A DNA stretch of 64,000 nucleotides, taken from an uncultured Acidobacteriaceae bacterium. Its GTDB lineage: Bacteria; Acidobacteriota; Terriglobia; Terriglobales; Acidobacteriaceae. Positions 3,891 through 23,379 of this stretch are shown here, piece after piece. Made by a program: the position numbers and the translations under genes. The stretch lies in assembly GCA_964245435.1 (NCBI GenBank), contig CAXTMF010000008.1:32772-96771 (forward strand), in the 5' to 3' direction. The stretch's first letter is position 1. Every line of letters starts with the position of its first letter. A model generated the notes under the pieces. That model was not told where the DNA came from. It saw nothing but the letters and a program-made list of their open reading frames with translations, and did not search any database.

Positions 3891-4059
3891 AGCTGCCTTG
3901 GCACACTGCTTCACGAAGGCGAGCTTCGGCTCGCCGTCCTCTTTGGTGGACCGGCCACACCTATAGGCGCCGGTAGATGCTCGCATTCCCCCTTCACGCT
4001 CCGTGGCATAGTGTTGTGTACCGGGTTGTGTACGCGCGGGGGAACCAGAAGGAGCAGAG

Positions 4060-6213
4060 ATGCGGAAGCAGTGGCGCAGGGCAGCGATTGTATTGGCGGG
4101 CATCAGCATCTTCTACGTGGCGTTCCAGATCCACGCGCAGGCCGGCGGCGCAGCTGACAAGTACACGTGGCTTGAAGACGTCTCGAGCGCCCGCTCGATG
4201 AACTGGGTCAAGACGGAAAACGCTCGCACAGAAAAGGTGCTGGAGGCTGACCCGCGCTACGCGACAAATCTCGCCGACGCACTGACCCTAGCCCAGGACC
4301 CCAACCGGCTCCCTCTGCCGAGCCTGCGCGGGGGCGAAATCTACAACCAATGGCGTGACGCGACCAACCCGCGCGGTCTGCTACGAAAGACCAAGCTGGC
4401 CGACTACTTAAACGCCAAGCCGCACTGGCAGACGGTGATCGACTTCGACGCGTTGGGCCGCACAGAGAAAACGGGATGGGTAAGCCGCGGTCTGAGCTGC
4501 CTGTATCCCGGCGATCGCTTCTGCATGGTCGCTCTCTCGGCAGGCGGTGAGGACGCGACCACTGACCGCGAGTTTGATCTGAAGACCGGGCAGTTCGTCC
4601 CTGGCGGCTTCACGCTGCCGCACAGCAAACAGAGCGCGGAGTGGGCGGACAAAGACACGCTGCTGATCGCGCACGACTGGGGCGCGGGCACGATGACCGC
4701 GTCCGGTTATCCATTCGTGGTGAAGGAATGGAAGCGCAGTACGCCGCTCGAGAGCGCGCACGAGATCTTCCGCGGCGCCCCTGGCGACGAAGTCGGTTCG
4801 CGAGCCTCCGTGCTGAACGATGCCCAGGGCCACTCTGTCACGCTCATTCGCCGCGGCGTGACCTTCTTTACCAACCAGACGTTCGTCCGCACAGCCAAAG
4901 GTATAGAAAGGCTGGCCATCCCGCCCAAGGCCGATGTTGCCGACCTAATCGACGGGCGCCTGCTTGTGGAGCTGCGCGAGGATTGGCAGCCCGAGGGACA
5001 GGCGCGCAAGTTCGTACAGGGCTCGCTCGTCGAGCTGAACCTGGCTGACGTGCTTCGCGATCCGGCGCACCTGCGGCCCGCGATTGTGTTTGAGCCTTCG
5101 GCGCAGGAATTCCTGCAGGAGCTTTCCTCGACTCGCGACCGCCTGATCGTGACCACGCTTGAGAACGTGCAGGGACGGGCCTACGTCTACAAGCCCGCGG
5201 CTGGTGGCTGGACCAAAACACGGCTGAAGCTCCCGGAAAACGTCTCCGTACACATTGCATCGACGAGCCCAACGGACAACCACTTCTTTCTCTCGATTAC
5301 CAGCTTTTTGACACCTCCCGCTGTGTGGCTTGGTGATGCGAGCGCGGGAACGCTGGCGGAAGCCAAGAGCCAGCCGGCGCAGTTTGACGCTTCGGCAGAT
5401 ACGGTCGACCAGTACTTCGCTGTTTCTAAGGATGGAACCCGTGTGCCCTACTTCGTCGTCCACCGCAGGGATCTGCAGTACAACGGCAGCAACCCGACCC
5501 TGCTGAATGCGTACGGCGGCTTCCAGGTATCCGAAACACCGACCTACTCGGCCTACCTGGGCAAACTCTGGCTCGAAAAGGGCGGCGTGTTCGTGCTGGC
5601 CAACATCCGCGGCGGCGGCGAGTTTGGACCGGCCTGGCACGAGGCCGGTCTGACCACGCACCGGCAACGCATCTACGACGACTTCGCGGCTGTCGGTGAG
5701 GACCTGATCGCGCGCAAGATTACCTCACCCGAGCACCTGGGCATTGAAGGCGGCTCAAACGGTGGGCTGCTGATGGGCGTCGAGATGGAACAGCACCCGG
5801 ACCTATGGAATGCGGTCGTGATCCAGGTGCCTTTGCTGGATATGCTGGGATACGAGCACATTGCCGCGGGCGCCAGCTGGGTCGGCGAGTACGGCTCGGT
5901 CAGCATACCCGAGCAGCGTGCCTTTCTTGCCTCGATCTCGCCCTACAATCAGCTTAAAGCGGATGGCAAGTACCCGGAGCCGCTCATCTTCACGACCACG
6001 AAGGACGATCGCGTAGGCCCGCAGCACGCCCGGAAGTTTGCCGCAAAGATGGAGGAGTACAGGGAGCCGTTCTTCTACGAAGAAATCACCGAGGGTGGCC
6101 ACGGTACCGGGGCCGACCTGAAGCAGGAAGCCGGCACATACGCGCTGACCTACACCTATCTCACGCGTAAGCTGATGGGCGGCGATGCGGGTGCGACGAC
6201 AGCCGCACGTTAG
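4060..6213 (+). CDS. Prolyl oligopeptidase family (S9A) serine peptidase, secreted
   Basis: 717 aa with a signal peptide ending FQIHAQA, an N-terminal propeller-sized region, and a C-terminal alpha/beta-hydrolase carrying the GGSNGGLL nucleophile elbow and DDRV...GGHG acid/His region. Confidence 0.85.
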   Translation: MRKQWRRAAIVLAGISIFYVAFQIHAQAGGAADKYTWLEDVSSARSMNWVKTENARTEKVLEADPRYATNLADALTLAQDPNRLPLPSLRGGEIYNQWRDATNPRGLLRKTKLADYLNAKPHWQTVIDFDALGRTEKTGWVSRGLSCLYPGDRFCMVALSAGGEDATTDREFDLKTGQFVPGGFTLPHSKQSAEWADKDTLLIAHDWGAGTMTASGYPFVVKEWKRSTPLESAHEIFRGAPGDEVGSRASVLNDAQGHSVTLIRRGVTFFTNQTFVRTAKGIERLAIPPKADVADLIDGRLLVELREDWQPEGQARKFVQGSLVELNLADVLRDPAHLRPAIVFEPSAQEFLQELSSTRDRLIVTTLENVQGRAYVYKPAAGGWTKTRLKLPENVSVHIASTSPTDNHFFLSITSFLTPPAVWLGDASAGTLAEAKSQPAQFDASADTVDQYFAVSKDGTRVPYFVVHRRDLQYNGSNPTLLNAYGGFQVSETPTYSAYLGKLWLEKGGVFVLANIRGGGEFGPAWHEAGLTTHRQRIYDDFAAVGEDLIARKITSPEHLGIEGGSNGGLLMGVEMEQHPDLWNAVVIQVPLLDMLGYEHIAAGASWVGEYGSVSIPEQRAFLASISPYNQLKADGKYPEPLIFTTTKDDRVGPQHARKFAAKMEEYREPFFYEEITEGGHGTGADLKQEAGTYALTYTYLTRKLMGGDAGATTAAR

Positions 6214-7880: not shown

Positions 7881-9119
7881 GTGTCTTGTATGACCACACG
7901 TTTGCTGGCCCTGGCCACAGTTTTGCTCGTCCCATCGGCGGTTCTGGCACAGAATGCGCCGGCTACACCGCCGCAGAGCCAGCCGACACCCTCGACGGTG
8001 CCCCAGACACCCCAAACTACGCCTCCGACGACCGCACCCCCGAGCACGACGCCGGGTCAGACGCCGAACTCGGGCGGCGATAAGAACGCCAAGCCAACTC
8101 CGGCCCCTGTCACCCCGGAAACGCCCGAGAAGCCGGTGCCGCTCGAGGCAAAGATAGGCCCGAATGGAGTAGTGCAGGGCGTTAAGCCAGGCAGCGATGA
8201 CGATGTCAGTGCTGTTGGCACACGAAATATCGGTGGGCGTGGCTTGGGAAACTGGTACTCGACCAACACCGAAATAGGCATGGGCAAGCAGTACTCGATG
8301 GAGCTGGAAAAGAGTACGAAGTTCATCAACGACCCGGTCGTTACCGAGTACGTTAACCGCGTGGCGCAGAATCTGGTCAAGAACTCCGACGCGAAAATCC
8401 CTTTCACGGTCAAAGTGGTCGATTCAGATGAGATCAACGCCTTTGCCCTGCCGGGCGGCTTCTTCTACGTCAACTCTGGGCTGATCCTCAACGCCGATAC
8501 CGAAGCCGAAATGGCTGGCGTTATGGCACACGAGATATCGCATGTAATCGCTCACCATGCTGTTCGGGAGCAGACCCGCATGAACTATGCCCAGCTCGGC
8601 ACGATCCCGCTCATCTTTGTTGGCGGCGGTCTGGGTTACGGCATCTACGAAGCATCGAACATCGCGATTCCGCTGACCTTCCTGCAGTTCTCGCGCGACT
8701 TCGAGGCACAGGCCGATTTTCTCGGAACGCAGTACCTTTACCGGGCCGGCTACGATCCACAGGCGCTGGTCACCTTCTTCGAGAAGATCGAGAACCTCGA
8801 GAAGAGGAAGCCAGGCGCGATCGCCAAGGCCTTTGAAACGCATCCGGCAACCCCGGACCGTATCGAGCGCACGCAGGATGAGATCGCAACATTGCTGCCT
8901 CCTCGGGCTGAGTACCTCGAAACGACATCTGAGTTCGACGATGTAAAAGCACGCCTAGCTCGCATTGAGAACAAGCGCAAGCTGGACGACAAGAAGAATG
9001 CAGGCAAGCCGACTCTGCGGCGCGCCAGTAGCTCCGATCCGAATGCGAATGATCCAAATGCGCAAACTGACGATGGCCGCCCGACGCTCCACAAGCGGGA
9101 CGACAGCAGCAGCAACTAA
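7881..9119 (+). CDS. M48-family zinc metalloprotease, secreted/periplasmic
   Basis: Signal peptide ending AVLAQ, a Pro/Thr/Gln-rich linker of about 90 aa, then an M48 domain with HEISHVIAHH (HExxH) and a downstream FETHPATPDRI block. Confidence 0.85.
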   Translation: MSCMTTRLLALATVLLVPSAVLAQNAPATPPQSQPTPSTVPQTPQTTPPTTAPPSTTPGQTPNSGGDKNAKPTPAPVTPETPEKPVPLEAKIGPNGVVQGVKPGSDDDVSAVGTRNIGGRGLGNWYSTNTEIGMGKQYSMELEKSTKFINDPVVTEYVNRVAQNLVKNSDAKIPFTVKVVDSDEINAFALPGGFFYVNSGLILNADTEAEMAGVMAHEISHVIAHHAVREQTRMNYAQLGTIPLIFVGGGLGYGIYEASNIAIPLTFLQFSRDFEAQADFLGTQYLYRAGYDPQALVTFFEKIENLEKRKPGAIAKAFETHPATPDRIERTQDEIATLLPPRAEYLETTSEFDDVKARLARIENKRKLDDKKNAGKPTLRRASSSDPNANDPNAQTDDGRPTLHKRDDSSSN

Positions 9120-9589: not shown

Positions 9590-9823
9590 TTAGCACTTCT
9601 TACACTTTGCCAGGATTGCAGCCTGCAGCCGGTCCCGGAGCGAATCCGGCAGGTCATAGAGCACGTTCGAACGGTACACCTCGATGGTCTTACGGGTCGT
9701 GGTCACCGTAATGGTGCAGTGTTCGCATACGCCGAGATGACTCTGCAGCGCGGAGCGCAGGTCGAGGTCAACGGTGTCATCGAGCAGGTCATCCAGGTGC
9801 AGCAAAAACTCAGAGCAGATCAC
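9590..9823 (-). CDS. Soluble zinc-binding anti-sigma factor (ZAS, zf-HC2)
   Basis: 77 aa with no TM segment and an H-x3-C-x2-C motif (SHLGVCEHC). The GTG start overlaps the stop of the upstream ECF sigma gene by 4 nt. Confidence 0.75.
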   Translation of the reverse strand: MICSEFLLHLDDLLDDTVDLDLRSALQSHLGVCEHCTITVTTTRKTIEVYRSNVLYDLPDSLRDRLQAAILAKCKKC

Positions 9824-10551
9824 TTTGCGTCACCGTTCCCATTCTTCTTGCCCACGCCATCTGCCGTTCGGTTGCCGAAGTAGCGATTGAGTCGTTCGCG
9901 CAGCTGCAAGCGAGCCCGCAGCAGCCTGGATTTGACCGCGGGTACGCTCAGGCCAAGCGTTTCCGCCGTTTCTTCCGTTGACAGACCCTCTACGTCCCGC
10001 AGAACAAAGACCACGCGAAAGCCGGGAGGCAGACCGTTGACCGTCTTTTTCAAGATCTCGGCGAGCTCCGACTGCCCGTACTGCTGTTCCGGACTCGGGC
10101 CCCAATCGGCCAGTTCCCGGGGCATCGAGCCTTCTTCTGTTTCCACATCCTCGTCGATCGAAACCATCTTGCCGGTGCGCCGCTTGCGCAACCGCATCAG
10201 ACTTTCGTTGACCGCGATACGCACCAGCCAGGTGTAGAACTTTGAATTCCCTTGGAACTGATTCAGCTTCTCGTACGCTTTGAGGAAGGCGTCCTGGACG
10301 ACATCCTCGGCGTCTTCACGGTTCTGCGTAATGTGCTGCGCGATGCGAAAAACCTGCCGGTCATACTGCTTCACCAGCGTTTCAAATGCATGCACATCTC
10401 CGGCTTTCGCCAGGTTGACCAGGCGGACGTCCGGGTGTTCTTCAATCGCCGGATCGACACTAACCACTGTGGCTGTTAACGCGGGCGGCGGCGGAATGCT
10501 GGATCCCGGACTGTTCCCGGGCTCTTCACTGCTTGATTGGATGGGAGGCAT
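9820..10551 (-). CDS. ECF (sigma-70 family group 4) RNA polymerase sigma factor
   Basis: Region 2 (DAEDVVQDAFLKAYEKL, FYTWLVRIAVNESL) and region 4 (LRDVEGLSTEETAETLGLSVPAVKSRLLRARLQL). I set the start at ATG 10551 (243 aa), because the 358-aa ORF start would overlap the divergent slt gene. A Ser/Pro-rich N-terminal extension of about 45 aa remains. Confidence 0.85.
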   Translation of the reverse strand: MPPIQSSSEEPGNSPGSSIPPPPALTATVVSVDPAIEEHPDVRLVNLAKAGDVHAFETLVKQYDRQVFRIAQHITQNREDAEDVVQDAFLKAYEKLNQFQGNSKFYTWLVRIAVNESLMRLRKRRTGKMVSIDEDVETEEGSMPRELADWGPSPEQQYGQSELAEILKKTVNGLPPGFRVVFVLRDVEGLSTEETAETLGLSVPAVKSRLLRARLQLRERLNRYFGNRTADGVGKKNGNGDAK

Positions 10552-10786
10552 CGATGTGAGTTTCAGCTTTTCGCGCCTTTCGCTTGATTGGGCAGCGGTG
10601 CCCGAGCCCTGCCTTTCCCATGCTATCGCGTTCCGGCTGCTGCCAAGTCCAAGAGGATAGTTCTGCTGTTGGCCGGACCGTGATGCGACGGGTACGTCTG
10701 GGTACGAAGGTCCGTACCGGGTGAGCTTTTCCTGAAGCGCAGTCCGAGCCGCTCGCTTACTCTCGACTGAGAGGATTCTCGATTTC

Positions 10787-13252
10787 GTGACCCCCACACG
10801 CAGCCTTACCCGCCGGCCCCCGCGAGCCGGGCAGAATGATTGGAAGGCTTGGTACTCCTTGCGCCACGCGCTTGTTCTTTTCGCGTTTGCTTTCACAACT
10901 TGCCTGTTGAATGCAGCACCGCTGAAGAAGGCCGCCCACCCGAAGCATGCAGGCGGAACAACGGCAAAGCACGGTGCGCGTATTACTGCCGCCAGCGCGC
11001 ATAGCCGCCATGCGGCAGGAGGGCGTGTTCACCGGGTGGTCGTAGTCAGGCGTCGCGGCCGGCACCGGGTTCTTTCCGCGCGAGAAGCCGTCAAGACGCA
11101 GCAGCTGGAGCACGCGTTTGTCGCCTCTACGCAGCTGCGGCCCATGGCCCAGCAGCTCGGCAACTATCGCAGCCCGGCCGCATACGCGGGCGTGGAAGTT
11201 TATGCGCACGCCCATACCGGCGCTGCCGCGGCTGCGGCCTACCTCGCGCTCGGCCACGCGTACCTGCTTGATCACCGCTACCCGGATGCGTTGGCTGCGC
11301 TGGCCAGCGCCGATGCGCAGGGCAACTCCCTCGATGACTATGCAGAGTACTTTGCAGCGCAGGCCGACCTGCAAAGCAGTCAGCTCCCGGCTGCAAGCGT
11401 CATCCTGACGAACTTCGCAGCGAAGTACCCGGACAGTATCTTCACGCCGCAGGTGCCCGTGCTGGAAGCAAATCTGCTGCTCCAACAGAACCAGCCCGCG
11501 GACGCGTTGCGTCTGCTGCATGCCCATACGGGCGAGAGTATGGCGAGCAAGCCCGATTTCCTCCTCGCGATGGCGAAGGCCGAGTCGCAGACCGGGGACA
11601 GTGCTGGCGGGCTGACGCTCTACCGGCGCATCCTCACAGAGCACCCACTGAGCCCGGAAGCAACAGTGGCACAGAACCAGCTGCAATCGACCGGGCAGTG
11701 GCTCGCGCTCAGCGTCAGTGAGCGGCGCCAGCATGCGGATGCCTTGTTCAACGGCGGCAAATCCAACGAGGCTGCGATCGAGTTTCGCGCACTTGCCTCT
11801 GACCCGAACCTGAACCAGAGCGAGCGCGATAGCCTGCTGCTCGGCGCAGCTGCCTGCGATATGAAGCTGAAGCGGCTTTCTGCTGCCTCGCTCGCCGGCA
11901 TCCCCGACACGGATGACGACAATGGGGCGCACAGGCTTTACCTGCTGATGGAGGTCGCGCGGTCCAACCAGGATCTTGCAACGCAGCAGGATCTGGTAAA
12001 CCAGCTCCGTACCCGCTTCCCGACCAACTCCTGGCTGGCCGAGGCGCTGTTCTCGAGCGGCAACCTGTACATGCTCAAACGGGATTACGCGTCGGCGGTG
12101 CCGTACTATCTCGAGCTCGCGCGGCGCTTCCCGCAGTCAAAAAACGCGGACAACGCCCACTGGCGCGCGGCGTGGCTCAGCTACCGGGAGCGCAACTTTC
12201 CCCAGGCCGAACAGCTGATGGATGAGCAGCTCACGAGCTTCCGCGATGGCAAGAACGTGTCCTCTGCGCTGTACTGGCGCGGCCGGCTCTACCTTGACCA
12301 GCAGCATGAGCCCGCGACGGCGGCGGCCTACTTCACAGCCGAGACACGCGTATACCAGCACTACTACTACGCCGCGATCGCGCGGCAGCGGCTGGACGCA
12401 CTCGGGCCCAATGTCACACCGTCCTCCATCCCGAGCCTCGACGCGTTGCAGCCGGAGCAGATTCCGACCCTGACCGAGGATGTACCTGGCAACGACCCGC
12501 ACCTCGCCAAAGCGCGGCTTCTCGCAAATGCCGGGCTTAACGACTATCTCTCGCAGGAGATCCATGCGTCGGAGGGTTCGGACGAGTGGGGATCGCTCGC
12601 CGAAGCCAAGCTCTACGCGAGCTTTGGCGAGGCGTATCGCGCGATGCGCTCGCTCAAACGGGCTATCCCCTTCTACACCTCGGCGCCCATCGACGAGCTG
12701 CCCATGGATTACTGGCGCATTCTCTTCCCTGAGGAGTACTGGCCCACGATCCAGCGCGAGGCGGCTGCGAATGGTCTCGATCCTTACATGGTCGCCTCAC
12801 TCATCCGGCAGGAATCCGAATTCAATCCGCGCGTGATCTCATACGCAAATGCCTACGGCTTGATGCAGTTGGAACCGGCAACCGGGCGTCAAATGGCCCA
12901 GAAGACGGGCTATAGCTCCCACTTGGACGTCAATGCACTACTCGATCCGGAGATCAACATCAAGCTGGGTTGCGCTTACCTAAGGCAGACGCTCGACCGC
13001 TTCGGTGGCCAGCAGGAGTACACCTTCGCCTCCTACAACGCAGGCGAGTCGCGTGTCGATGACTGGAAAGCTGCAGGTGACTACACCGGCATCGATGAGT
13101 GGGTCGAATCGATTCCTTTTGAGCAGACACGCGACTATGTGCAGGCACTCATGCGCAATGAGGAGATCTACCGCGAGCTGGACAAAGCAGCGAAGACGCA
13201 CTCGGAGATCGAGACGGCTGCGCAGGCCGGGGCCACCGGTTCGGATAACTAG
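10787..13252 (+). CDS. slt: Soluble lytic murein transglycosylase (Slt70-like)
   Basis: 821 aa with an N-terminal hydrophobic segment, a long helical/TPR-like domain, and a C-terminal SLT catalytic domain (LIRQESEFNPRVISYANAYGLMQLEPATG...YNAGESRV). GTG start. Confidence 0.85.
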   Translation: MTPTRSLTRRPPRAGQNDWKAWYSLRHALVLFAFAFTTCLLNAAPLKKAAHPKHAGGTTAKHGARITAASAHSRHAAGGRVHRVVVVRRRGRHRVLSAREAVKTQQLEHAFVASTQLRPMAQQLGNYRSPAAYAGVEVYAHAHTGAAAAAAYLALGHAYLLDHRYPDALAALASADAQGNSLDDYAEYFAAQADLQSSQLPAASVILTNFAAKYPDSIFTPQVPVLEANLLLQQNQPADALRLLHAHTGESMASKPDFLLAMAKAESQTGDSAGGLTLYRRILTEHPLSPEATVAQNQLQSTGQWLALSVSERRQHADALFNGGKSNEAAIEFRALASDPNLNQSERDSLLLGAAACDMKLKRLSAASLAGIPDTDDDNGAHRLYLLMEVARSNQDLATQQDLVNQLRTRFPTNSWLAEALFSSGNLYMLKRDYASAVPYYLELARRFPQSKNADNAHWRAAWLSYRERNFPQAEQLMDEQLTSFRDGKNVSSALYWRGRLYLDQQHEPATAAAYFTAETRVYQHYYYAAIARQRLDALGPNVTPSSIPSLDALQPEQIPTLTEDVPGNDPHLAKARLLANAGLNDYLSQEIHASEGSDEWGSLAEAKLYASFGEAYRAMRSLKRAIPFYTSAPIDELPMDYWRILFPEEYWPTIQREAAANGLDPYMVASLIRQESEFNPRVISYANAYGLMQLEPATGRQMAQKTGYSSHLDVNALLDPEINIKLGCAYLRQTLDRFGGQQEYTFASYNAGESRVDDWKAAGDYTGIDEWVESIPFEQTRDYVQALMRNEEIYRELDKAAKTHSEIETAAQAGATGSDN

Positions 13253-14228: not shown

Positions 14229-15227
14229 CTATGCGGCCGGGCGCCCCGCTTCCACGACAAAGTCCGCCGGGAGGCAGACCTCAACGCCCGGCAACACGGA
14301 TGGTGCCAGGGTTTTTAGCAGCAACGTCGCGGCTCCGGCCTGGGGCAGCTCCCCCAGCAGCTGCTGCACCGCAGCTTCCCAGTGCAGCGCGGATTTCCGG
14401 ATCAGGTACTCGCGCACCTGAGGCCGTTGCAGCTCGCCGTAAACAGCAGTCTTGGCGCAGCGTTGCAGCACAACGCCTGCGATGCCGGAGGGCAGCAGCG
14501 GCAGAGCATCGAGCACAGGCAGTGTGCATAGGTTCGCGCCAAGATCGCGCGAAAGGTCCTTTCCCGCGACCGGCTCTGCCCCGTACAGGTCAAGCACATC
14601 GTCTGCGTACTGGAACGCGAGGCCAAGATCACGTCCGCAATCGTGCAGTCGAGAGGCAGCAGCGACATCGCCCGAGAGCAGCGCGGCCGCGCTCGTCGCG
14701 AGGCCAAAGAGCTCACCCGTCTTGCCGATCGAGACGGCCAGCGCGTGCGCACGCAGAGCCGGCTCGTTTCTCGACGAGCCACCTGTCAGTTCGCGAGCCT
14801 CTCCGGCCATCATGCGTTGTGCACACGTACTCAGTGCCTCGCCGAAGGCAAAGCTGCACCGGTAAGCACCGCGGATCGCCTCGGTCAACATCCAGTCGGA
14901 GGCAAGCGTCGCCAGCCGTGGGTCGAATGCATGGTGGGCGGCCGCGCGGCCGCGCCGGGTGCTGCTCCGATCAAAGATGTCGTCCTGCACGAGCGTGGCA
15001 GCATGCAGCAGTTCTACAACGGCCGCGGTCTGGGTCAGCCTGCCGGCCATTGTCGCTAGACCCTCGCCGGCCGCGATAAGCAGCAGCCCGCGCACTCGCT
15101 TGCCACCCTGCACTGTATAGCGGACCACGGCCCGCAGCGGCTCCCGCGCCCGTGCGGCTAGCGCTTGCAGCTCGGCTCCAATCGCGTCAGATTGCACGGG
15201 ATGGACCCCCTGTCCTGTCACTCGCAT
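14229..15227 (-). CDS. crtE: Polyprenyl (geranylgeranyl) diphosphate synthase
   Basis: First and second Asp-rich motifs (LVQDDIFD, FQYADDVLD). It is the last gene of the opsin/crt operon, so the GGPP synthase role is inferred from context. An alternative GTG start lies at 15197. Confidence 0.8.
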   Translation of the reverse strand: MRVTGQGVHPVQSDAIGAELQALAARAREPLRAVVRYTVQGGKRVRGLLLIAAGEGLATMAGRLTQTAAVVELLHAATLVQDDIFDRSSTRRGRAAAHHAFDPRLATLASDWMLTEAIRGAYRCSFAFGEALSTCAQRMMAGEARELTGGSSRNEPALRAHALAVSIGKTGELFGLATSAAALLSGDVAAASRLHDCGRDLGLAFQYADDVLDLYGAEPVAGKDLSRDLGANLCTLPVLDALPLLPSGIAGVVLQRCAKTAVYGELQRPQVREYLIRKSALHWEAAVQQLLGELPQAGAATLLLKTLAPSVLPGVEVCLPADFVVEAGRPAA

Positions 15228-16206
15228 GTGATAACTTCGGCCCTGCTGCTGTCGCTCGCCCTAGTTCGTTCAGTGCCATGTGCGGCACAGTGAGCGCACT
15301 CAGTACGATGAAGATTTCGGCCTGATAAGCAATAGCCTCATGCCGCCCCCAGAGCAATATGCCCGCGGTAAGACACAGCGCAAGCACCCAGGGCAGGAAG
15401 CCGGCTTTTAAGTTGCGGGCAAGCTTTCCCGCCAGGGTCTCGCCTGCTCCCTCGGGCAGGCTGGTCGTGACCAGGTGCTCCGGTGTATGCCAGCAGCAGA
15501 AGAACACAGTAAAGGCAAGCAGCGGGTCTGCAAAGCAGAAGAGTGCGAGCTCGATGGCAAGCACGCCCAGCAGCTCAACCTGCATACCGCGAGCTACGCC
15601 AAACTTTCCGGCGAGAATGCCCGCGGCAGCCACGGCGGCGACCGGCCAGCAGCTGGCGCCGAGCGAACCCGCAAGAGCCGCGGCCAGCCCCTGCGTGTTC
15701 CCTTCCCCGTGCAGCATTTGCGCGAAGATTGCTGCTGCCTCGCCGGAATGCCAGTGGCACGCCGCCACGATCGGCACCGCGCCAAGCGCAACTGCAGCGA
15801 TGCTGGCGAGCGGTGTCGGCGTCCAGATCTCGGGTTCGGTGCCGAAGTGCCATGCCGAGTACAGGAGAAAGAGCAGGAGAGACGCGAGCGGCGCGAGCAG
15901 CCAACCGAGCAGCGTAAACGCAGCCAAAAGAGCGTAACTGCCCAGAAATACAAGCGGCCAGCGCGGCCCGATGCGTGATAGCAGCTGCTCCGCCTGCACC
16001 TGGTCGTAAGCGCCATGCCACATCGCTACAGCAATAGCCGCGATGGCGAGTGCCACAACGGCGGGCCCGTGTAGAGCGCCCAGGATCGATGCCACGCAGC
16101 ACGCAGCGGCCGCTGCGCCGAACAGAATCAAGCGCTGCGGCAGCAGAACCGAGCGGGCCGACGCGTAGCTGGCGGCGGGTGCGATGGAAACGGAAGCAGT
16201 GCTCAC
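15187..16206 (-). CDS. blh: Brp/Blh-family beta-carotene 15,15'-dioxygenase (retinal-forming)
   Basis: 339 aa, about 8 TM, with the four conserved His blocks of the Brp/Blh family (WHGAYD, WHFGTE, CWHTPEHL, VPHMAL). It sits between crtY and crtE downstream of an opsin. Confidence 0.75.
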   Translation of the reverse strand: MSTASVSIAPAASYASARSVLLPQRLILFGAAAAACCVASILGALHGPAVVALAIAAIAVAMWHGAYDQVQAEQLLSRIGPRWPLVFLGSYALLAAFTLLGWLLAPLASLLLFLLYSAWHFGTEPEIWTPTPLASIAAVALGAVPIVAACHWHSGEAAAIFAQMLHGEGNTQGLAAALAGSLGASCWPVAAVAAAGILAGKFGVARGMQVELLGVLAIELALFCFADPLLAFTVFFCCWHTPEHLVTTSLPEGAGETLAGKLARNLKAGFLPWVLALCLTAGILLWGRHEAIAYQAEIFIVLSALTVPHMALNELGRATAAGPKLSHASDRTGGPSRAI

Positions 16207-17387
16207 CGGCCAGCTCCAGAGTTCGCTGGTTGCATCATCGCTGCTCGCACTGCGCCAAGGCCGGCCATCACAGCTGCGTGCGCCATGGGGAGCTTCGGCA
16301 AGGACCAGGCGACACGCAACATCTCCGCGGGACGGCTTCGCTCGCCTAGGAAGCGGACCAGCTCATCCGGCCGCGTCCGCGCGAACATGCGCAGGAAGAG
16401 CGTGGCTGCCACTGCTGGCGAGCGTCGCACTGCACGGAGGAAGATGACATCGAGCGTCTTGTAAATCTGCGGCTCCGCCCGGCTGGGTATCGGGCGGCCC
16501 GCCAGCAATGCTTCAGCAATTGCGCGGCTGTGCCGCTGGATACGCAGAAAGGCATAACCGGAGGAAGGCTTGATGCGGGCTCCCCGCGTACCGATAAGGT
16601 GCACGTTGCTGAGCCCGGGTTGGCAAGGTGCGCCGGCATGCATCGGCAGCGAGCCATTCTCTGTGTACAGCAGCTCCCAGTCGCGTGAACGTTCTTCCAT
16701 CCAGGCATGGAGATCGCGATGGTAGGGCGGTTCCGGCAGGCTGGGATCATCCAGGTAGGTCATCTCCACCAGTGCCTCTGTCGTCGAGAAGGGGAGCACG
16801 TAGACAAAACGCACTCGACCGGGCTCATCCGCGGGGAGCAGACCCATCAGGTCCACAGTTTCCGCGTCAAAGCAGGGCTCGGCGGTGCGGACGCGCCAGC
16901 CAACAAATCGCTGCACGAGCGCAGGCGGCACAGCGGAGTTTCCGGGATCAGGCCGGCCGTCAAAGACCCTCTTTGCCAGCAGACGTCCGTTGCTTGTTTC
17001 GATCGCCATAAGCCCGCCCGGGTGCGAAGCCACTAAGTGGACCGTGACGCCGCGGCATAGCGTTTGCGCAGGTTGGCGCTCTACGCGGTCAATGGCCGCG
17101 CGGTAGAAATCATCACCGGCTATGTGGCAATAACGATAGCGATGACTCTGCTGCATTACCGTAGTCCGGCCATGACTGACGCGCCAGCTGCTCCACGAGT
17201 GGGAGATCTCCGAACTGAACGGGTGCTCCTCGCTGTTCCAGAAGCACCAGGTACGGTCGCGCACATAGCTGGTACGCGGCTCAAGGAGCAGAACCTCGCC
17301 TGGAACCCGATGATCGGAAAGTGCCGCAGCGAGGCTCAGCCCTGCACACCCCGCGCCGAGGATAGCTAGATCGACGTCGCTCCTCAT
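16203..17387 (-). CDS. crtY: Lycopene beta-cyclase (CrtY type)
   Basis: N-terminal FAD fold DLAILGAGCAGLSLA, 394 aa, positioned between crtB and blh. Confidence 0.8.
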   Translation of the reverse strand: MRSDVDLAILGAGCAGLSLAAALSDHRVPGEVLLLEPRTSYVRDRTWCFWNSEEHPFSSEISHSWSSWRVSHGRTTVMQQSHRYRYCHIAGDDFYRAAIDRVERQPAQTLCRGVTVHLVASHPGGLMAIETSNGRLLAKRVFDGRPDPGNSAVPPALVQRFVGWRVRTAEPCFDAETVDLMGLLPADEPGRVRFVYVLPFSTTEALVEMTYLDDPSLPEPPYHRDLHAWMEERSRDWELLYTENGSLPMHAGAPCQPGLSNVHLIGTRGARIKPSSGYAFLRIQRHSRAIAEALLAGRPIPSRAEPQIYKTLDVIFLRAVRRSPAVAATLFLRMFARTRPDELVRFLGERSRPAEMLRVAWSLPKLPMAHAAVMAGLGAVRAAMMQPANSGAGR

Positions 17388-18274
17388 GGCTTGCTCCCGA
17401 GCCGGGTGAGGAGGTCGCGCCGCGCACTAGCCTGCGTCCGGCTGTTCTCAAGAGATTGCAGGAGTGCAGAGAGCAAGAGCTGCGCCTTCCGGCTACGCGC
17501 CACCACGGCTCGCTTGCGCCAGGAAAGCGGTATATCTCGTCCAACGACGATGCCGATCTCGCGATAGCAGGCCGCGGCTGCCAGGATGCTGACGCGGGCT
17601 CGCCAGGGCAGGTACTGCATACCGCTGTGCCCGCTCCGGTAGTAGCGTTCTGCGAGCTCAAGAAGCCGGCTGGTTGCACGCTCCAGCTCGGCTGAGCGAC
17701 CGCCGCTCACGATAGCCGCTTCTACGGCCTTGGGCGCCACCCAGGCTGCGGGCAGGTAAATGCGGTCGCGGCCGAGATCCTCGGCAACATCGCGAGCGAT
17801 GTTGGTCAGCTGCATGGCAATGCCAAGATCCGTCGCTGCCTGCGCTGCCTCGGGCGGCGCGCCCAGGATGCGGCACATCATGATCCCGACCGTGCCGGCG
17901 ACGCCGAAGGCGTACTCAGTGAGTTCCCGCTCAGTGCCAATGCGTTGGGGGCCAACATCGGCGGCGAGCGACTGAGTAAGCCGCAGCGCGACCCGGCTCA
18001 ACCCGGCAAAGCGCGCCTCCAGATCCACGGGCCAGCCACACGCAACTGCTTCTTCGCCGAGCGGGTCCTCATCGAGCGCCCGAATGGCCCGCTGCAGCAT
18101 CTCCGGCCCCCTGGCGCGAACGCTTGGCTCCTGCTCATCGGCCAGGTCATCCATATGGCGGCAAAATGCATACAGTTCCGCAGCGTCCTCGCGCATGCGT
18201 AGCGGCAGCAGCCGCGAAGCCAAGTGGAAGGTTCGACCGGACCTCGCCATGACAGCCTCTACGCCAGCGCTCAC
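17384..18274 (-). CDS. crtB: Phytoene synthase
   Basis: Squalene/phytoene synthase family with Asp-rich motifs (FCRHMDDLADE, NIARDVAEDLGRDRIYLP). Confidence 0.9.
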   Translation of the reverse strand: MSAGVEAVMARSGRTFHLASRLLPLRMREDAAELYAFCRHMDDLADEQEPSVRARGPEMLQRAIRALDEDPLGEEAVACGWPVDLEARFAGLSRVALRLTQSLAADVGPQRIGTERELTEYAFGVAGTVGIMMCRILGAPPEAAQAATDLGIAMQLTNIARDVAEDLGRDRIYLPAAWVAPKAVEAAIVSGGRSAELERATSRLLELAERYYRSGHSGMQYLPWRARVSILAAAACYREIGIVVGRDIPLSWRKRAVVARSRKAQLLLSALLQSLENSRTQASARRDLLTRLGSKP

Positions 18275-19854
18275 GCAGCACCTCGTCCGGCGCCGGGGGA
18301 CGCAACGAAGTTCCCGCGAGAAGCTGCACCAGCGCGCATCTCGTCAAAGTAGTGCTCGAGCACCTTTGCCGAGCAGAGTACGCCAGGCAAACCAGCTCCA
18401 GGATGCGTACCCGCGCCAACTAGGTAGAGTCCCCGCACATCTTCCGAGCGGTTGTGGAAGCGAAACCAGGCCGACTGCAACAGCGTGGGTTGAATGGAAA
18501 AGCCAGTGCCGTGCTCGGTCCGTAGCTGATCGCGGAAATGCTCAGGCGTGACGTGGAACTGGACCTCGACGTGTTCACGGAGCCCTGGGCAGAGCGAGTC
18601 CTCAAGCACCTGCATCGTGTGCGCTGCGAGCTTTGGGCCGGCTACTGCCCAGTCGATAGCGCGGTCCGGACGCAGCACCTCCAGATTTGGTACCGGAACA
18701 AGCGCATACATGCTCTCGCAACCGGACGGGGCGAGTGACGGGTCGGTACGTGTCGGCGCATGCAGGTAGAGGCTGATGTCATGTGAAAGCAATTTATGAT
18801 CGAAAATCTCCTCGAGCAATTCCTTGTACCGACGACCCAGCAGAATCGTATGGTGCGCGAGCGACGGGTACCGCTTGCGTATACCGAGATAGAGCACGAA
18901 GAGGCCCATCGAGAACTTTTTCCGGCGAATGTTCGCGTCCGTCCACTTACGACGCCACTTGGGCGCGATCAGGTGGCGGTAGACCGAGGGCGCATCGGCA
19001 TTCGCGACCACACAATCCGCCTGCACGACCTCGCCGTTCTCGAGCGCAACACCCACAGCGCGGCCGGTCACGGCGCTCTTCCTGGCTTGGCTGCCGTTCT
19101 CCTGCTCCACGAGGATTTCGCGCACTCCACAGCCAAGGTGTAAGTGGACACCGACCTGCTGCATCAGGTGCACCATCGCCTGTACAAGCGCCGCCGTGCC
19201 GCCCATGGCGAAGCTCACGCCGTCTTTGCGTTCAAGGTGCTGGATGAGCGAATAGATCGATGTTGTATGGAACGGATTTCCGCCCACCAAGAGAGGCTGA
19301 AATGAAAAAACGCGGCGCAGTGCTTCGTCTCGAATGTACTGGCTTACAAAGCTGTACACCGAGCGGTCACTACGGAGCGCTAGCATCTGCGGCAAAACCG
19401 CCAGCATCTTTCCGGCAGAGTGGAATGGCACTGCTCCAAGCTGTTCAAAGCCGACGCGGTAGATGGACTCGACCTTCCGGAGCAGCCTCTTATAGCCATC
19501 CACGTCCCCCGGGGCAAATGCGTGCACTCGTTCAACCAGTTCATGGTCCGTACCCCCATAGTCAAATGATCGCCCATCGGCGAAGCGGATGCGGTACCAG
19601 GGGGAGAGCTCCCGGAATTCAACTGCTTCACTGCGAAGAAGGCCGAACAGTTCCCAGAGCTCGTCAAAGAGAAAAGGCGCAGTAATTACGGTAGGGCCGG
19701 CGTCAAACGTGTAGCCGGCGCGACGGTATACGCCGGCCCGGCCTCCGGCCTGAGCCTGGTTATCGAAGAGATTTACAGAAAAGCCAGCCGCCCGTAGACG
19801 CAGGGCGGCAGCCATGCCGCCGAATCCCGCCCCGATCACAACTGCACTCGGCAT
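18271..19854 (-). CDS. crtI: Phytoene desaturase (bacterial CrtI type)
   Basis: N-terminal VVIGAGFGGMAAALRL FAD fold, 527 aa, C-terminal GAGTHPGAGLPGV signature. Confidence 0.9.
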   Translation of the reverse strand: MPSAVVIGAGFGGMAAALRLRAAGFSVNLFDNQAQAGGRAGVYRRAGYTFDAGPTVITAPFLFDELWELFGLLRSEAVEFRELSPWYRIRFADGRSFDYGGTDHELVERVHAFAPGDVDGYKRLLRKVESIYRVGFEQLGAVPFHSAGKMLAVLPQMLALRSDRSVYSFVSQYIRDEALRRVFSFQPLLVGGNPFHTTSIYSLIQHLERKDGVSFAMGGTAALVQAMVHLMQQVGVHLHLGCGVREILVEQENGSQARKSAVTGRAVGVALENGEVVQADCVVANADAPSVYRHLIAPKWRRKWTDANIRRKKFSMGLFVLYLGIRKRYPSLAHHTILLGRRYKELLEEIFDHKLLSHDISLYLHAPTRTDPSLAPSGCESMYALVPVPNLEVLRPDRAIDWAVAGPKLAAHTMQVLEDSLCPGLREHVEVQFHVTPEHFRDQLRTEHGTGFSIQPTLLQSAWFRFHNRSEDVRGLYLVGAGTHPGAGLPGVLCSAKVLEHYFDEMRAGAASRGNFVASPGAGRGAA

Positions 19855-19861
19855 AAAGAAT

Positions 19862-19901
19862 CCCAGAGAAAAGGGGCATCCGCAATGATGCGACCGCCCC
19901 T
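19862..19901 (-). terminator. Terminator/attenuator-like hairpin between the opsin gene and crtI
   Basis: The minus-strand RNA reads AGGGGC-GGU-CGCA-UCAU-UGCG-GAU-GCCCCU. This gives a 6-bp GC clamp (19872-19877 with 19896-19901) plus a 4-bp inner stem, followed by UUUCUCU. The element ends 7 nt before the crtI ATG. Confidence 0.35.
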
Positions 19902-19933: not shown

Positions 19934-20653
19934 TTAGCGGACGACGGCGCGTTCACCTGCGTAATCGGACGCAATGCTCGTTGATTTCTTCGCGAGGCTT
20001 ACAGCCCAGAGCCCGTAGGCCACCTTGGTCAGCAGGTCGAAGATCACGTAGCCCGCAGCATCAAAGTCCGCGCTGAGGTATTTCGCACCTTCCTGCCCGA
20101 GAATAAAGATGACTGGGTAGGCGAACCACAGCACGGAAAGAACGGTGGCCTTCTTTGCGTAGTCTGCACCGTGAGGGCCAGTCGCCGTCATCTTCTTGAA
20201 TGGACCGAAGAGCAGGAAATAGATGAATAAGAATGCAATACAGCTGGTGATGTAGAAGGAGTATTTCAATGTTATATCATCGGTGCGGCCCGCGACGTAC
20301 CCTGTCACGATCATGTAGATATCTGCACCGAGGAGACTGGCGATAAGAGCAAAACGCTTGAAGCCCGTACCTTTCAATCCAGAATGAACAAGACTCCAGA
20401 GCAGCAGCGGCGTCGTGATGGCCCAGTCGATATAACGGGCATAATAGAAGATGCGGCCACCTTCGGTAGTAAGCCGGCCTGCGCCTAAAGCCATCACGAG
20501 GTATGCCGTGAAGGCAAAGAGAGGCACGTAGAAGTGGGAAGCGATCTCACCTTCCTCCCGCTCATTCTTATTGCTCAGCAAAGGCAGATATAGCAGCACC
20601 ATGCCGATAAACATTCCAACTACGCCTACTTCAAGCCAGGTCTGCACATCCAT
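19934..20653 (-). CDS. Microbial (type-1) rhodopsin, DTS motif, probable light-driven outward proton pump
   Basis: 239 aa, 7 TM. Helix C RYIDWAITTPLLLWS aligns with BR RYADWLFTTPLLLLD. Helix G FDLLTKVAYG carries the Schiff-base Lys (K210) and the D212 equivalent (D206). Helix F is LWFAYPVIF. Retinal-synthesis genes follow directly downstream. Confidence 0.9.
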   Translation of the reverse strand: MDVQTWLEVGVVGMFIGMVLLYLPLLSNKNEREEGEIASHFYVPLFAFTAYLVMALGAGRLTTEGGRIFYYARYIDWAITTPLLLWSLVHSGLKGTGFKRFALIASLLGADIYMIVTGYVAGRTDDITLKYSFYITSCIAFLFIYFLLFGPFKKMTATGPHGADYAKKATVLSVLWFAYPVIFILGQEGAKYLSADFDAAGYVIFDLLTKVAYGLWAVSLAKKSTSIASDYAGERAVVR

Positions 20654-20744: not shown

Positions 20745-21950
20745 CTACTGTTTGCTCCCGGATAAGGGGCTGGGCGGCTCCGGCGAAATGCGGGTCGGTG
20801 GCTGGGGGATGTTCGTAATCGTGATCGGCTGAGGCACGGGCGGGTTCGTGACTGGCCGGGCTACGATGGCGACCTGCTCATGCTTGGTCTCGAGTAGCTT
20901 TCCCGTCCTGGAAACGTGCTCCTCCCAAACCACGTAGCGGCTATCATCCAGCCGATCCGTGAAGATGACGTCGTGCTCGCCGTCAACGCGCAGCTTGAGC
21001 AGCGGCGTCGGCGCGGTCAGGATGTCCTCGCTCAGAAAAGGCTCGTTCGGAATCTGCGGCGTCGCGCCGCCAACCTGCGCAACGCAGTCCGAAACGGCGA
21101 TCCAGCCCATCTCAGGCGAGAGATTCCGGTACAGCGTTGCCGGCGGCAGCGCCTCATTTACAGCCTTATCGCTCTCTTTTTTCACGCTGAGAGCCTGCTG
21201 TTCAGTGGTCGCATGTTTCACCTTCTTGCGGACCAGCTTCACTGCACGCACTGGCTCATTGTTCGCCCGGGGCACAACCGCCGTAAATGCAGCTGCCCGG
21301 TCACCGTCCTGCCGAGTAAAGTGGAGCAGAATTGCACCCTGACCGTCGCCTGCCGGTACACCAACCAGCGCTTCCGCGTCGGGCTGGGTTGCCGGGCATA
21401 CCGTCTGCTGGTAGCTCCAACCGGACTGAGACAAATTGAGGCCCCGCGCTTTCGCCGCGCGAGCCAGATCCTCGTGCCGCGCAGCAATGATCGCGGCGTC
21501 CGCCGCCGTAATTTCGTCGCCTGCACGCACCGGCAGCGAGAAGTACACCATACGCGGATTGCCGGGAACGCTACGAGATAGCATGCCGGGCGGCGTAACA
21601 GCGACGATGTCATGGCCCAGATCGATGTCGCGATTGGCTCCCAGGCCGAGATCCAAGCCGAGGTCCATCGGCTGCGGAGCTGAGTCGACAGAGGCGTCAA
21701 TATCCGTATGAGGCTTTGAGTCGAGCCGTACATCCGGCTGCTGCACAGGCTTTGGAGCTTGGCTCGCGGGCGTCACCTGAGAATTGTGCGTTCCGGGCTC
21801 AGTCGGCGTCGCGCTGGGTGGAAGCGTTTGCTGCGGCTGAGGCTGGGCTCCCTGCGGAACGTTGTTCTGCGCCCGCAGCTCCCGCGCAGAAAGACTTGCG
21901 ACAAACAAAGGCAGCCATACAGCAAGGGAGGTGAGACGGAGAGCTCTCAT
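20745..21950 (-). CDS. Hypothetical secreted protein
   Basis: 401 aa with signal peptide MRALRLTSLAVWLPLFVASLSARELRAQ and a Pro/Gln-rich linker of about 70 aa. I recognised no domain. Confidence 0.6.
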   Translation of the reverse strand: MRALRLTSLAVWLPLFVASLSARELRAQNNVPQGAQPQPQQTLPPSATPTEPGTHNSQVTPASQAPKPVQQPDVRLDSKPHTDIDASVDSAPQPMDLGLDLGLGANRDIDLGHDIVAVTPPGMLSRSVPGNPRMVYFSLPVRAGDEITAADAAIIAARHEDLARAAKARGLNLSQSGWSYQQTVCPATQPDAEALVGVPAGDGQGAILLHFTRQDGDRAAAFTAVVPRANNEPVRAVKLVRKKVKHATTEQQALSVKKESDKAVNEALPPATLYRNLSPEMGWIAVSDCVAQVGGATPQIPNEPFLSEDILTAPTPLLKLRVDGEHDVIFTDRLDDSRYVVWEEHVSRTGKLLETKHEQVAIVARPVTNPPVPQPITITNIPQPPTRISPEPPSPLSGSKQ

Positions 21951-22053: not shown

Positions 22054-23379
22054 TTAGCGGCGACGTGCAGGGGTCCGCGTTGTAGCCTGTACTGCGCCAT
22101 CCTTCAAGATGATCTGTGCCGGGTTTTGCGTGTAAGAGTCGAAGGTGGCCACGTATTTCACGTCGGCTCCCGGCGAAGGAACTGTCTTGAGCGGCTCCTT
22201 CATGTTGATGGTGAAGTCAGCCTTGTTCGACTGCTGGGAGTCGGCAGAGACCGCCATCTGCACCTGATCGGCAGTGGCCGTCACCACCTTGCCCGGAATC
22301 AGAAGGGTCTGACCTTTCAGGGTTGCCCATACCTTCTCGGCGTCCTCCGTCGAGCCGTTAGCGAGCACGAACTCCTTGTCGGAAAGCGAGAGCTTGGAGA
22401 GATCAGGCGTGCTGGTCACGGCCTGGTGAGCCAGGTCGGCAGGCGCCGGCGGCGGCGGAGCGGCGGTCGGCTTATAGTCAGCCGGGGGCATCAGGTTGGC
22501 TTGCGCCAGGGTTTTTACCTGATCAAAGCCATCCATGCCGCCGTGGTACTTGTTGTACCAATACTCGGCTGCCTTCTCGATCTGGTCCTTCGAGGTACCC
22601 TGCGCGAACTGCGCAGCGCGGGTCAGGTACCAGATCGCGTTCACCAGGTCCTTCGGATCTTCCTGCAGGTAAGCCTGTCCTAGCAGGTAGGTGTCGAGCA
22701 GTCCAGGTCCCGTCTGGGTCTGCGTAGGATCGGTATAGGCCTTTAGCTCGGATTGGTAGGCATCGATCGAGCCCTTGTAGTCCTTCTTTGCGGTATCATC
22801 AGCGGCAATCGCGCTTTCAAAGATTGGCGTCGCGAGCCCCTTCAGTTTGGTATAGTCGGCGTCGCTCATGCCGGCCGGCTTGGTCGCGCTCAGGCCCTTT
22901 TGTGCCAGTGAGGCTGCATCATCCAGTTTCGACTGGTCGCCCTGCGCCTGCTGCTTTTCCACGTAGACGATAAAGGTTAGTGCGCGCAGGTTGGTCGGAT
23001 CCACTTGCAGCAGACGGCGTGCCGCGTCCACTGTTTTGGGCGTGTCGTTGGCCTGCTGATAGGCGCCCACCAACTGCTCCAGCATCTCCTGCTTCACCAC
23101 GGAATTGGGATACTGCTGCAGAAAGGCTTCGATGGCTTGTGCCTTGGCTGCCGGGGAGCTCTGACCGACTGCGTTCGTGTAGGCGTTGTACTCGGCCGGA
23201 TCTTTGATCGTGATCTGGCCACCCTGCGCGTTAGTTCCAGTAGCGGGCTGGCCGGTTTGGGTCGGCGAAGCGGCCTGGCTCGGCGCGGTAGCAGGCGCGG
23301 TTTGCGCGGTCGCGGCAGGCAGTACAGCAAGTGTGCTGGTCGCAAACGCGAGCAGCGAGGCGACAACAACCTTCTTCAT
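22054..23379 (-). CDS. Secreted TPR-like helical-repeat protein
   Basis: 441 aa with a signal peptide ending AATAQ, a Pro/Thr/Gln-rich linker, and a helical-repeat body (AIEAFLQQYPNS, AARRLLQVDPTNLRAL, LLGQAYLQEDPKDLVNAIWYLTRAAQF). Confidence 0.65.
   Translation of the reverse strand: MKKVVVASLLAFATSTLAVLPAATAQTAPATAPSQAASPTQTGQPATGTNAQGGQITIKDPAEYNAYTNAVGQSSPAAKAQAIEAFLQQYPNSVVKQEMLEQLVGAYQQANDTPKTVDAARRLLQVDPTNLRALTFIVYVEKQQAQGDQSKLDDAASLAQKGLSATKPAGMSDADYTKLKGLATPIFESAIAADDTAKKDYKGSIDAYQSELKAYTDPTQTQTGPGLLDTYLLGQAYLQEDPKDLVNAIWYLTRAAQFAQGTSKDQIEKAAEYWYNKYHGGMDGFDQVKTLAQANLMPPADYKPTAAPPPPAPADLAHQAVTSTPDLSKLSLSDKEFVLANGSTEDAEKVWATLKGQTLLIPGKVVTATADQVQMAVSADSQQSNKADFTINMKEPLKTVPSPGADVKYVATFDSYTQNPAQIILKDGAVQATTRTPARRR

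Follow-up and report, generated by a model that had tools for sequence, protein, structure and literature searches.

A DTS-motif rhodopsin with a helix-B histidine heads a retinal operon in Acidobacteriaceae and is a probable donor-less outward proton pump

The DTG/DTS rhodopsins are outward proton pumps that lack the cytoplasmic proton donor (Suzuki 2022, PMC8927995; Okhrimenko 2023, PMC10154332); Harris 2015, as cited in PMC10154332, is also among the publications on the family. They carry Asp, Thr and Gly or Ser at positions 85, 89 and 96 of bacteriorhodopsin (BR). In the numbering of PspR the family markers are His37 at the position of BR Thr46, a second histidine, His33, described as 'characteristic', Tyr213 (95% conserved) and Leu81 at BR Leu93 (100% conserved), and alanine is the commonest residue at position 217 (PMC8927995). 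PspR, PaR and SpaR all pump protons outward, with a pH-dependent M decay (PMC8927995, PMC10154332). Here we describe an opsin with this residue signature encoded in a 64,000-nucleotide stretch of DNA, the window, from an uncultured Acidobacteriaceae bacterium (GenBank assembly GCA_964245435.1, contig CAXTMF010000008.1, positions 32,772 to 96,771 of the forward strand). The gene lies at 19934..20653 on the minus strand, begins with ATG, and encodes a type-1 microbial rhodopsin of 239 amino acids with a DTS motif.

Two subclades of the family provide the closest points of comparison. In the crystal structure of SpaR, H37 lies within hydrogen-bonding distance of S84, behind L81 and atop a wide cytoplasmic cavity; SpaR pumps at acidic pH only, and the apparent pKa of the donor is ~5.8 (PMC10154332). 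The SpaR-like clade, termed 'mirror proteorhodopsins', was defined by blastp clustering at E ≤ 1e-65 and is characterized by H32, H33, S121 and S199 (PMC10154332). The MpR-like clade has carboxylates at MpR E32, E33 and D35, corresponding to SpaR positions 30, 31 and 33 (PMC10154332). For one MpR-like member there is a single report, by Cho et al., of Li+/Na+ pumping, which the account in PMC10154332 presents as a claim and as unexpected.

We consider it likely, with a probability of about 0.75, that the Acidobacteriaceae opsin absorbs green light and uses it to pump protons outward, as a donor-less rhodopsin of the DTG/DTS type. Several observations lead to this reading. The protein has the rhodopsin fold and the Schiff-base lysine. 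Its BR-type acceptor complex of R73, D76, T80 and D206 is invariant in 95 homologs, the DTG/DTS markers S87, H40, Y213, L84 and A217 are present, and its retinal pocket set is identical to that of the SpaR-like proteins. An ungapped alignment puts H40 and S87 where the SpaR crystal has H37 and S84. The clade falls, at 60-79% bootstrap support, within a supergroup of histidine-bearing rhodopsins, apart from the sensory and xenorhodopsins, and PspR, PaR and SpaR themselves pump protons outward. Lastly, the opsin heads a conserved retinal operon with no adjoining transducer, which suggests that it may be co-expressed with its own retinal-synthesis pathway.

The open reading frame (ORF) matches the Pfam family Bac_rhodopsin (PF01036, E = 6.1e-43, residues 4-222), and no NCBIfam model matched it at E ≤ 1e-5. 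Residues were assigned from a MAFFT alignment of 191 sequences including verified references. The BR and Anabaena sensory rhodopsin (ASR) sequences were checked to be 100% identical to the chains in the PDB; those of BcXeR, SpaR (8ANQ), PspR (7W74), SsGHR (8XX8), SyHR, MrHR(T74D), RxR and AR2 were taken from PDB alignments. In helix B, H40, P44 and Y51 correspond to BR T46, P50 and Y57. In helix C (R73 to S87, 20393..20437, minus strand) R73, D76, T80, L84 and S87 correspond to R82, D85, T89, L93 and D96, giving the counter-ion and acceptor Asp, the Thr, the gate Leu and the Ser in place of the donor. In helix G (D206 to Y213, 20015..20038, minus strand) D206, K210, Y213 and A217 correspond to D212, K216, F219 and L223, providing the second counter-ion, the Schiff-base lysine, the equivalent of PspR Tyr213, and alanine at the position where it is commonest in the family. 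Further pairs are E188 with E194, D198 with E204, D111 with D115, S137 with S141, W176 with W182 and Y179 with Y185. The DTG/DTS triad is therefore D76, T80 and S87, and the markers at BR T46, F219 and L93 are H40, Y213 and L84. The second histidine of helix B is absent; its place is taken by E36, and the cytoplasmic end of the helix reads E33-E34-G35-E36-I-A-S-H40.

These assignments agree with an earlier note on this DNA, made by eye from the letters. It had described a gap-free match to BR in helices B, C, F and G, and the offset between query and BR is indeed constant in each helix (6, 9, 6 and 6 respectively). MAFFT reproduced its pairing of R73, D76, T80, L84, S87, D206 and K210 with BR, and thus its statement that the Schiff-base lysine and both counter-ion aspartates are present and that D96 is replaced by Ser87. 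The placement of His40 exactly at BR Thr46 also held: helix B is not shifted in the alignment, and there is no gap relative to SpaR through helices B and C. Arithmetic and a reading of the minus strand confirmed the codons that it gave for H40 (20534..20536, read as CAC), D76 (20426-20428), S87 (20393-20395), D206 (20036-20038) and K210 (20024-20026). The codons of E33-E34-G35-E36 occupy 20546..20557, and those of E188 (20090-20092) and D198 (20060-20062), at the positions of the BR proton-release pair, lie within 20060..20092, all on the minus strand. E188 sits in a GQEGA loop resembling GSEGA of BR. The note's statement that donor-less DTG/DTS pumps with a helix-B histidine had been described is accurate, as the published work summarized above demonstrates (PMC8927995, PMC10154332).

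We searched 5.8 billion proteins for relatives and obtained 225 at E ≤ 1e-10. About 95 sequences, counting the query and loci from a genome scan, share 47% identity or more with the query and form its clade. Histidine at the BR T46 position and the equivalents of R82, D85, T89 and L93 occur in 95/95 clade sequences, and the helix-G Asp and Lys in all 94 that are complete. At BR D96, 94 sequences have Ser and one has Thr. Little or no variation is seen in Tyr at BR F219, in Ala at L223 or in the pocket residues Y134, C138, F141 and F183. At BR E194 the clade has Glu (90), Asp (2) or Gln (2), and at E204 it has Asp (94). The cytoplasmic end of helix B is more variable, with [E/D/Q], [E/Q] and [D/E/G] at BR 39, 40 and 42, the position of PspR His33 being D or E and rarely G. 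Since the residue signature is conserved across 95 sequences it lies far beyond chance, and as judged from this conservation the DTS/His signature is under strong purifying selection, across divergence down to ~50% identity.

Of 95 conserved positions, the query itself departs from the clade consensus at 5 (W8E, G106S, W131Y, L155M and T203V); other members depart at 0 to 2. With so few departures, none of them at a functional position, we have ruled out that the gene is a decaying opsin copy. At codon 8 (20630-20632, GAA) the query has Glu, where 86 of 90 clade members have Trp. This is the BR W12 position at the extracellular end of helix A, and the Glu codon is three nucleotide changes away from TGG.

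We modeled the protein with AlphaFold2 using a 78-sequence alignment. The model has seven transmembrane helices, with a pLDDT (predicted local distance difference test) of 92.7 and a pTM (predicted template-modeling score) of 0.88. Foldseek comparison of the model gave TM-scores of 0.88/0.93 for PspR (7w74) and 0.86/0.91 for SpaR (8anq), and HMMER aligns query residues 36-93 to SpaR 33-90 without gaps. Taken with the descriptions of the SpaR and PspR crystals, the ungapped alignment suggests that His40 faces Ser87, as H37 faces S84 in SpaR.

The first Foldseek match was neither of these, but the glycylhalorhodopsin SsGHR (8xx8), with a TM-score of 0.91 and 39% identity. SsGHR is also the best PDB match by sequence (E = 1.4e-41), shares with the query a small residue at D96 and Tyr at F219, and falls in the same supergroup in the trees. 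It is an inward Cl-/SO4 2- pump, so that an inward anion pump of the glycylhalorhodopsin kind has to be weighed. However, SsGHR has a TTG motif; the function of these proteins needs Thr in place of the D85 carboxylate, and all known anion pumps are without that carboxylate (PMC11532467), whereas D76 of the query is invariant in its clade. SsGHR moreover has Gln, not His, at the T46 position, where the query has H40. We regard anion pumping by the query as extremely unlikely.

The phylogenetic position of the opsin was analyzed using neighbor-joining trees of 91 sequences and 235 columns, constructed with Kimura distances (200 bootstraps) or BLOSUM62 scoredist distances (100 bootstraps). In the Kimura tree the Acidobacteriaceae, SpaR-like, MpR-like and ASR/xenorhodopsin (ASR/XeR) clades each have 100% bootstrap support. 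A supergroup comprising the Acidobacteriaceae clade, the SpaR-like and MpR-like clades, the Sphingomonas DTG proteins and the glycylhalorhodopsins has 60% support in the Kimura tree and 79% in the scoredist tree. In the latter the Acidobacteriaceae clade lies at the base of the supergroup and no pairing exceeds 19%. The SpaR-like proteins appear as its sister at 26% in the Kimura tree; we have dropped this specific relation as unsupported, with bootstrap values of 16-26% overall. Scores of the query against hidden Markov models (HMMs) of the individual groups were highest for Sphingomonas DTG (173), followed by the P0086/P0087/P0091/P0092/P0093 group (157), MpR-like (154.7), actinobacterial DTG (152), SpaR-like (131.2), Rubrobacter DTG (129), ASR/XeR (122), cyanobacterial halorhodopsin (107) and BR (93).

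Named hosts within the clade are all Acidobacteriaceae, comprising uncultured metagenome-assembled genomes (MAGs) at 64-79% identity and Granulicella, Terriglobus and Bryocella at 49-54% (genome scan). Beyond the clade identity drops to 43% or less, with Sphingomonas DTG proteins, Acetobacteraceae, Methylobacterium, Solirubrobacterales and others. The suggestion of the earlier note that the opsin comes from a different lineage than the known Pseudomonas, Pantoea and Sphingomonas proteins is borne out by these nearest named relatives. On this evidence the opsin clade is probably a separate, deep and phylum-restricted branch of the His-bearing DTG/DTS supergroup.

The trees also bear on the possibility of a photosensor or inward proton pump of the ASR or xenorhodopsin kind, since such a position would have placed the opsin within the ASR/XeR group. 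It lies well apart in the trees, where ASR/XeR form their own clade at 100%, and both HMM and phmmer scores to ASR/XeR are below those to the DTG/DTS groups. There are points of resemblance, in that ASR has a DTS triad and H48 of NsXeR is a histidine near the T46 position. Yet ASR, BcXeR and relatives in Deinococcus and Metabacillus have Pro at BR D212, unlike D206 of the query, a distinction that the earlier note had drawn correctly, and at the T46 position, where the query has His40, they carry Ala in the case of BcXeR and ASR. There is no transducer gene beside the opsin, which heads an operon for pigment synthesis. A sensory or inward-pumping role is therefore very improbable.

Comparison with the SpaR-like proteins, among them SpaR, PspR and PaR, reveals much in common. 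Both have D-T-(S/G), His at T46, Tyr at F219, Leu at L93, Ala at L223 and the counter-ion aspartates, and the SpaR-like pocket of Y133, C137, F140 and F184 is identical to Y134, C138, F141 and F183 of the query. The differences lie elsewhere. SpaR H32 and H33 are replaced by G35 and E36, S121 and S199 by Gly and Asp (Gly or Ala, and Asp, in the clade), and SpaR E92 by Gly. At BR E194 and E204 the SpaR-like proteins have Glu with Ser or Thr, compared with the BR-like Glu and Asp of the query. The query is 34-38% identical to SpaR-like proteins, with BLAST scores of 107-121 bits. Against SpaR and the S. parapaucimobilis and Pantoea proteins it scores 114-121 bits (E ~1e-31 to 1e-33 for a nominal 1e8-residue database), far from the E ≤ 1e-65 used for clustering; SpaR-like members score 220-346 bits among themselves, and scores within both the SpaR-like and MpR-like clades are at least 220. 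The hosts differ too, being Sphingomonas, Pantoea and Pseudomonas as opposed to Acidobacteriota, and the proteobacterial relatives have the opsin followed by blh alone where the query has a full crt operon.

The MpR-like proteins, from Methylobacterium, Acetobacteraceae and Beijerinckiaceae, resemble the query at the place where SpaR does not. We used plasmid genes of Methylobacterium to represent them, whose E32/E33/D35 numbering agrees with PMC10154332; the supplements of that paper held neither an MpR sequence nor Acidobacteria. The query is acidic at the three positions that distinguish MpR from SpaR, E33, E34 and E36 standing at E32, E33 and D35. The MpR-like DTG protein of M. aquaticum reads EEADTIIH (E32-E33-A-D35-T-I-I-H39), so that the E-E-x-D-x-x-x-H spacing is the same as in the query. 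Both groups thus have an acidic E-E-x-(D/E) one turn before the helix-B histidine, together with DT(G/S/T) and Tyr at F219, and the HMM score of the query is higher for MpR-like than for SpaR-like. It follows that a light-driven Li+/Na+ pump like MpR of Methylobacterium populi must be considered, in which E33, E34 and E36 would form a cation uptake site. Against this, the Acidobacteriaceae clade never groups with the MpR-like proteins (0% bootstrap in the scoredist tree), to which the query is 33-36% identical with scores of 105-132 bits. In the pocket the query has G118 and F183, at BR G122 and W189, compared with Ala and Leu in MpR-like proteins, and most MpR-like sequences examined keep His at the SpaR 33 position, unlike the query. 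They have Asp with Ser or Gly at BR E194/E204, whereas the BR-like E188/D198 pair of the query points to proton release. Established Na+ pumps use an NDQ motif, and an acceptor pair of D85 and T89 is typical of proton pumps, which also counts against cation pumping. The cation claim also comes from a single report. We think the Li+/Na+ reading improbable.

It appears, then, that by sequence the opsin belongs to neither of the described subclades and forms a clade of its own. Among the groups compared, the combination of carboxylates at both BR E194 and E204 with the MpR-like helix-B pattern is unique to this clade. The absence of His at the PspR His33 position is not, being shared by some of the MpR-like and some of the Sphingomonas DTG proteins. 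With BR, to which identity is 28-34%, the query shares R82, D85, T89, D212 and K216, as well as D115, S141, W86, W182 and Y185 and carboxylates at E194 and E204. It differs in having Ser for D96, His for T46 and Tyr for F219.

A cassette of co-directional genes on the minus strand begins with the opsin and, by its annotation, covers the path from isoprenoid precursors to retinal. Directly downstream lies crtI, encoding phytoene desaturase (18271..19854; PF01593, E = 1.4e-30), followed by crtB for phytoene synthase (17384..18274; PF00494, E = 4.4e-52), crtY for lycopene cyclase (16203..17387; PF05834, E = 1.6e-49) and blh for the retinal-making beta-carotene 15,15'-dioxygenase (15187..16206; PF15461, E = 7.4e-37; TIGR03753, 129.9 bits against a cutoff of 95.25). 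The last gene is crtE-like, for a polyprenyl and probably geranylgeranyl diphosphate synthase (14229..15227; PF00348, E = 1.5e-45); its matches to NCBIfam prenyl synthases are all under the equivalog cutoffs. The order opsin-crtI-crtB-crtY-blh is found in 11/11 related Acidobacteriaceae loci as far as the contigs reach. The crtE-like gene is present in six of the 11; two contigs end earlier, and three (L005, L009 and L010) extend past this point with no detected match. On one contig, of 3.59 Mb, the synteny extends to the SDR, SMC and SLT genes at the flanks. Pfam and NCBIfam searches of the neighboring genes found no transducer or signaling gene adjoining the opsin. The window flanks the cassette with core chromosomal genes, including SMC, Lon, TamA/TamB-like, endonuclease III and MqnP, and the GC content is typical. 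Core flanks, synteny with the 3.59 Mb contig and typical GC rule out an island acquired by horizontal transfer, and on gene content and order the cassette is a resident chromosomal operon.

A number of points weigh against outward proton pumping. All the trees are built from distances, and they give the clade no well-supported sister group (16-26% bootstrap). Identity to characterized pumps is 34-38%, and the closest solved structure is that of an anion pump, SsGHR, although it lacks both D85 and the histidine. The second histidine of PspR and SpaR is replaced by Glu36, and the E-E-x-E/D pattern matches that of the clade for which Li+/Na+ pumping has been claimed. What the helix-B histidine does in the family is itself in question. 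The H37N mutant of PspR resembles wild type (PMC8927995), and in SpaR the H37K, H37R and H37N substitutions produce no dramatic loss of pumping while H37A and H37Y lead to partial loss (PMC10154332).

If the opsin is an outward proton pump, its mechanism would be as follows. Light would isomerize all-trans retinal on K210, and the Schiff-base proton would transfer to D76, which T80 holds in place; D206 and R73 would make up the rest of the counter-ion complex. The acceptor role of D76 is likely because the residue is identical in BR, SpaR and PspR, and in view of the result with SpaR D73N. By analogy with BR, the proton would probably be released on the extracellular side via the E188/D198 pair. 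Since Ser87 stands in place of Asp96, the Schiff base would be reprotonated from the cytoplasm through a water-filled cavity like that of SpaR and PspR. The cavity would be lined by His40, hydrogen bonded to Ser87 behind the Leu84 gate, together with Tyr213 and the acidic end formed by E33, E34 and E36. His40 might serve as relay or gate or, once protonated, possibly as the donor. The photocycle and pumping rate should then be strongly pH-dependent, fast at acidic pH and slow above ~pH 6-7, which would suit acidophilic, light-exposed Acidobacteriaceae. Given L84 (equivalent to position 105 of proteorhodopsin) and the SpaR-type pocket, absorption is predicted near 540 nm, in the range of ~530-550 nm; T209, which stands at BR A215, may shift it slightly to the blue.

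The Glu36 position merits some speculation. It sits on the same side of the helix as H40, a turn lower (i, i+4), and might tune the pKa of the histidine. It might also lessen the sensitivity to Zn2+ that SpaR owes to its histidine cluster. Taken further, the clade could be a distinct third subtype of donor-less pump, where a carboxylate-imidazole couple of Glu/Asp36 and His40 would raise the histidine pKa and make it a true cytoplasmic donor, which along with BR-type release by E188/D198 would give efficient and less pH-limited pumping. We offer this only tentatively, and think it rather unlikely. If true, the couple would be a genuine 'mirror' of the Asp97-His75 pair of proteorhodopsin, and together with the six-gene cassette it would make rhodopsin phototrophy a standard and unreported trait of Acidobacteriaceae.

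The gene type as such is already known, and homologs stand in public databases labeled 'bacteriorhodopsin'. Literature searches combining rhodopsin with Acidobacteriaceae, Acidobacteriota or lichen, and for the DTS motif, returned no description of the Acidobacteriaceae clade; the only Acidobacteriota rhodopsins found in this way were DTE proteorhodopsins of Holophagaceae. Acidobacteriaceae rank with the most abundant bacteria in acidic soils; a conserved opsin with a retinal operon implies that many of these 'heterotrophs' would harvest light. Among bacterial proton pumps, only DTG/DTS rhodopsins have been shown to operate at acidic pH (PMC10154332), and an acidophile-specific branch is thus a test case for the loss of the carboxylic donor. 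The branch also offers a natural experiment in donor-less proton uptake by way of a histidine, where Glu for His on the cytoplasmic side and a BR-like release pair could show the role of the helix-B histidine. It could help to settle whether proteins with E-E-x-D/E in helix B pump H+ or Li+/Na+, and acid-tolerant pumps for optogenetics might be drawn from it.

The names of many of the MAGs have the metaWRAP bin format used in a lichen-metagenome study (PMC11542873). That study places Acidobacteriaceae among the four most frequent bacterial families of lichens and describes bacteriochlorophyll-based phototrophy in other lichen bacteria; the word 'rhodopsin' occurs zero times in it. His-bearing DTG, DTS or DTT opsins were observed in MAGs of Acidobacteriaceae, Acetobacteraceae, Beijerinckiaceae/Lichenihabitans and Sphingomonas (loci L001-L046 and L062), corresponding to the four commonest lichen families. 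On these sequences, lichen bacteria in general may have an unreported capacity for rhodopsin phototrophy.

Searches for regulatory elements gave little. Rfam had no match over the 64-kb window, a scan for sigma-70 promoters found no site near the opsin, and terminator-like hits were not enriched (12, compared with 8.2 ± 2.9 in shuffled sequences). The 79 bp between opsin and crtI contain a weak terminator-like hairpin (19876-19891, minus strand), GCATCATTGCGGATGC and then CCCTTTTCTC, which might reduce read-through from the opsin to the crt genes. Two ORFs of 401 and 441 amino acids (20745-21950 and 22054-23379, minus strand) immediately precede the opsin in the same orientation. They have signal-peptide-like N-termini and low-complexity regions rich in Pro, Gln and Ala, and matched nothing in Pfam or NCBIfam. 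Both keep their position in five closely related loci (L001-L004 and L067) and not in those of Granulicella, Terriglobus and Bryocella; their presence beside the opsin is probably plain synteny rather than a functional link. An ECF-type sigma factor of 358 amino acids with a long N-terminal extension (9820-10896, minus strand) and an M48 peptidase (7881-9119, plus strand) are located past the crtE end of the cassette, at a distance of ~3-5 kb.

Some other opsins seen in the survey depart from these patterns. Two MpR-like sequences, one from Acetobacteraceae (L032, opsin at ~3356-4291) and the other in L056 (199-957), have Pro at BR D96 while keeping the His and Tyr219; we know of no earlier description of such a 'DTP' triad. 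Opsins from Deinococcus and Metabacillus (L047, L050, L052, L055, L058 and L059) are ASR/xenorhodopsin-like, with Pro at D212, DTA or DTS, Ala at T46 and Asp at BR L223, and group with BcXeR and ASR at 100% bootstrap. In the Chloroflexota, the opsins of a Ktedonobacteraceae member (L036) and of Dictyobacter (L045) have a DTD triad with Tyr at BR F219 and Ser at T46, and branch beside the cyanobacterial halorhodopsins in the neighbor-joining tree.

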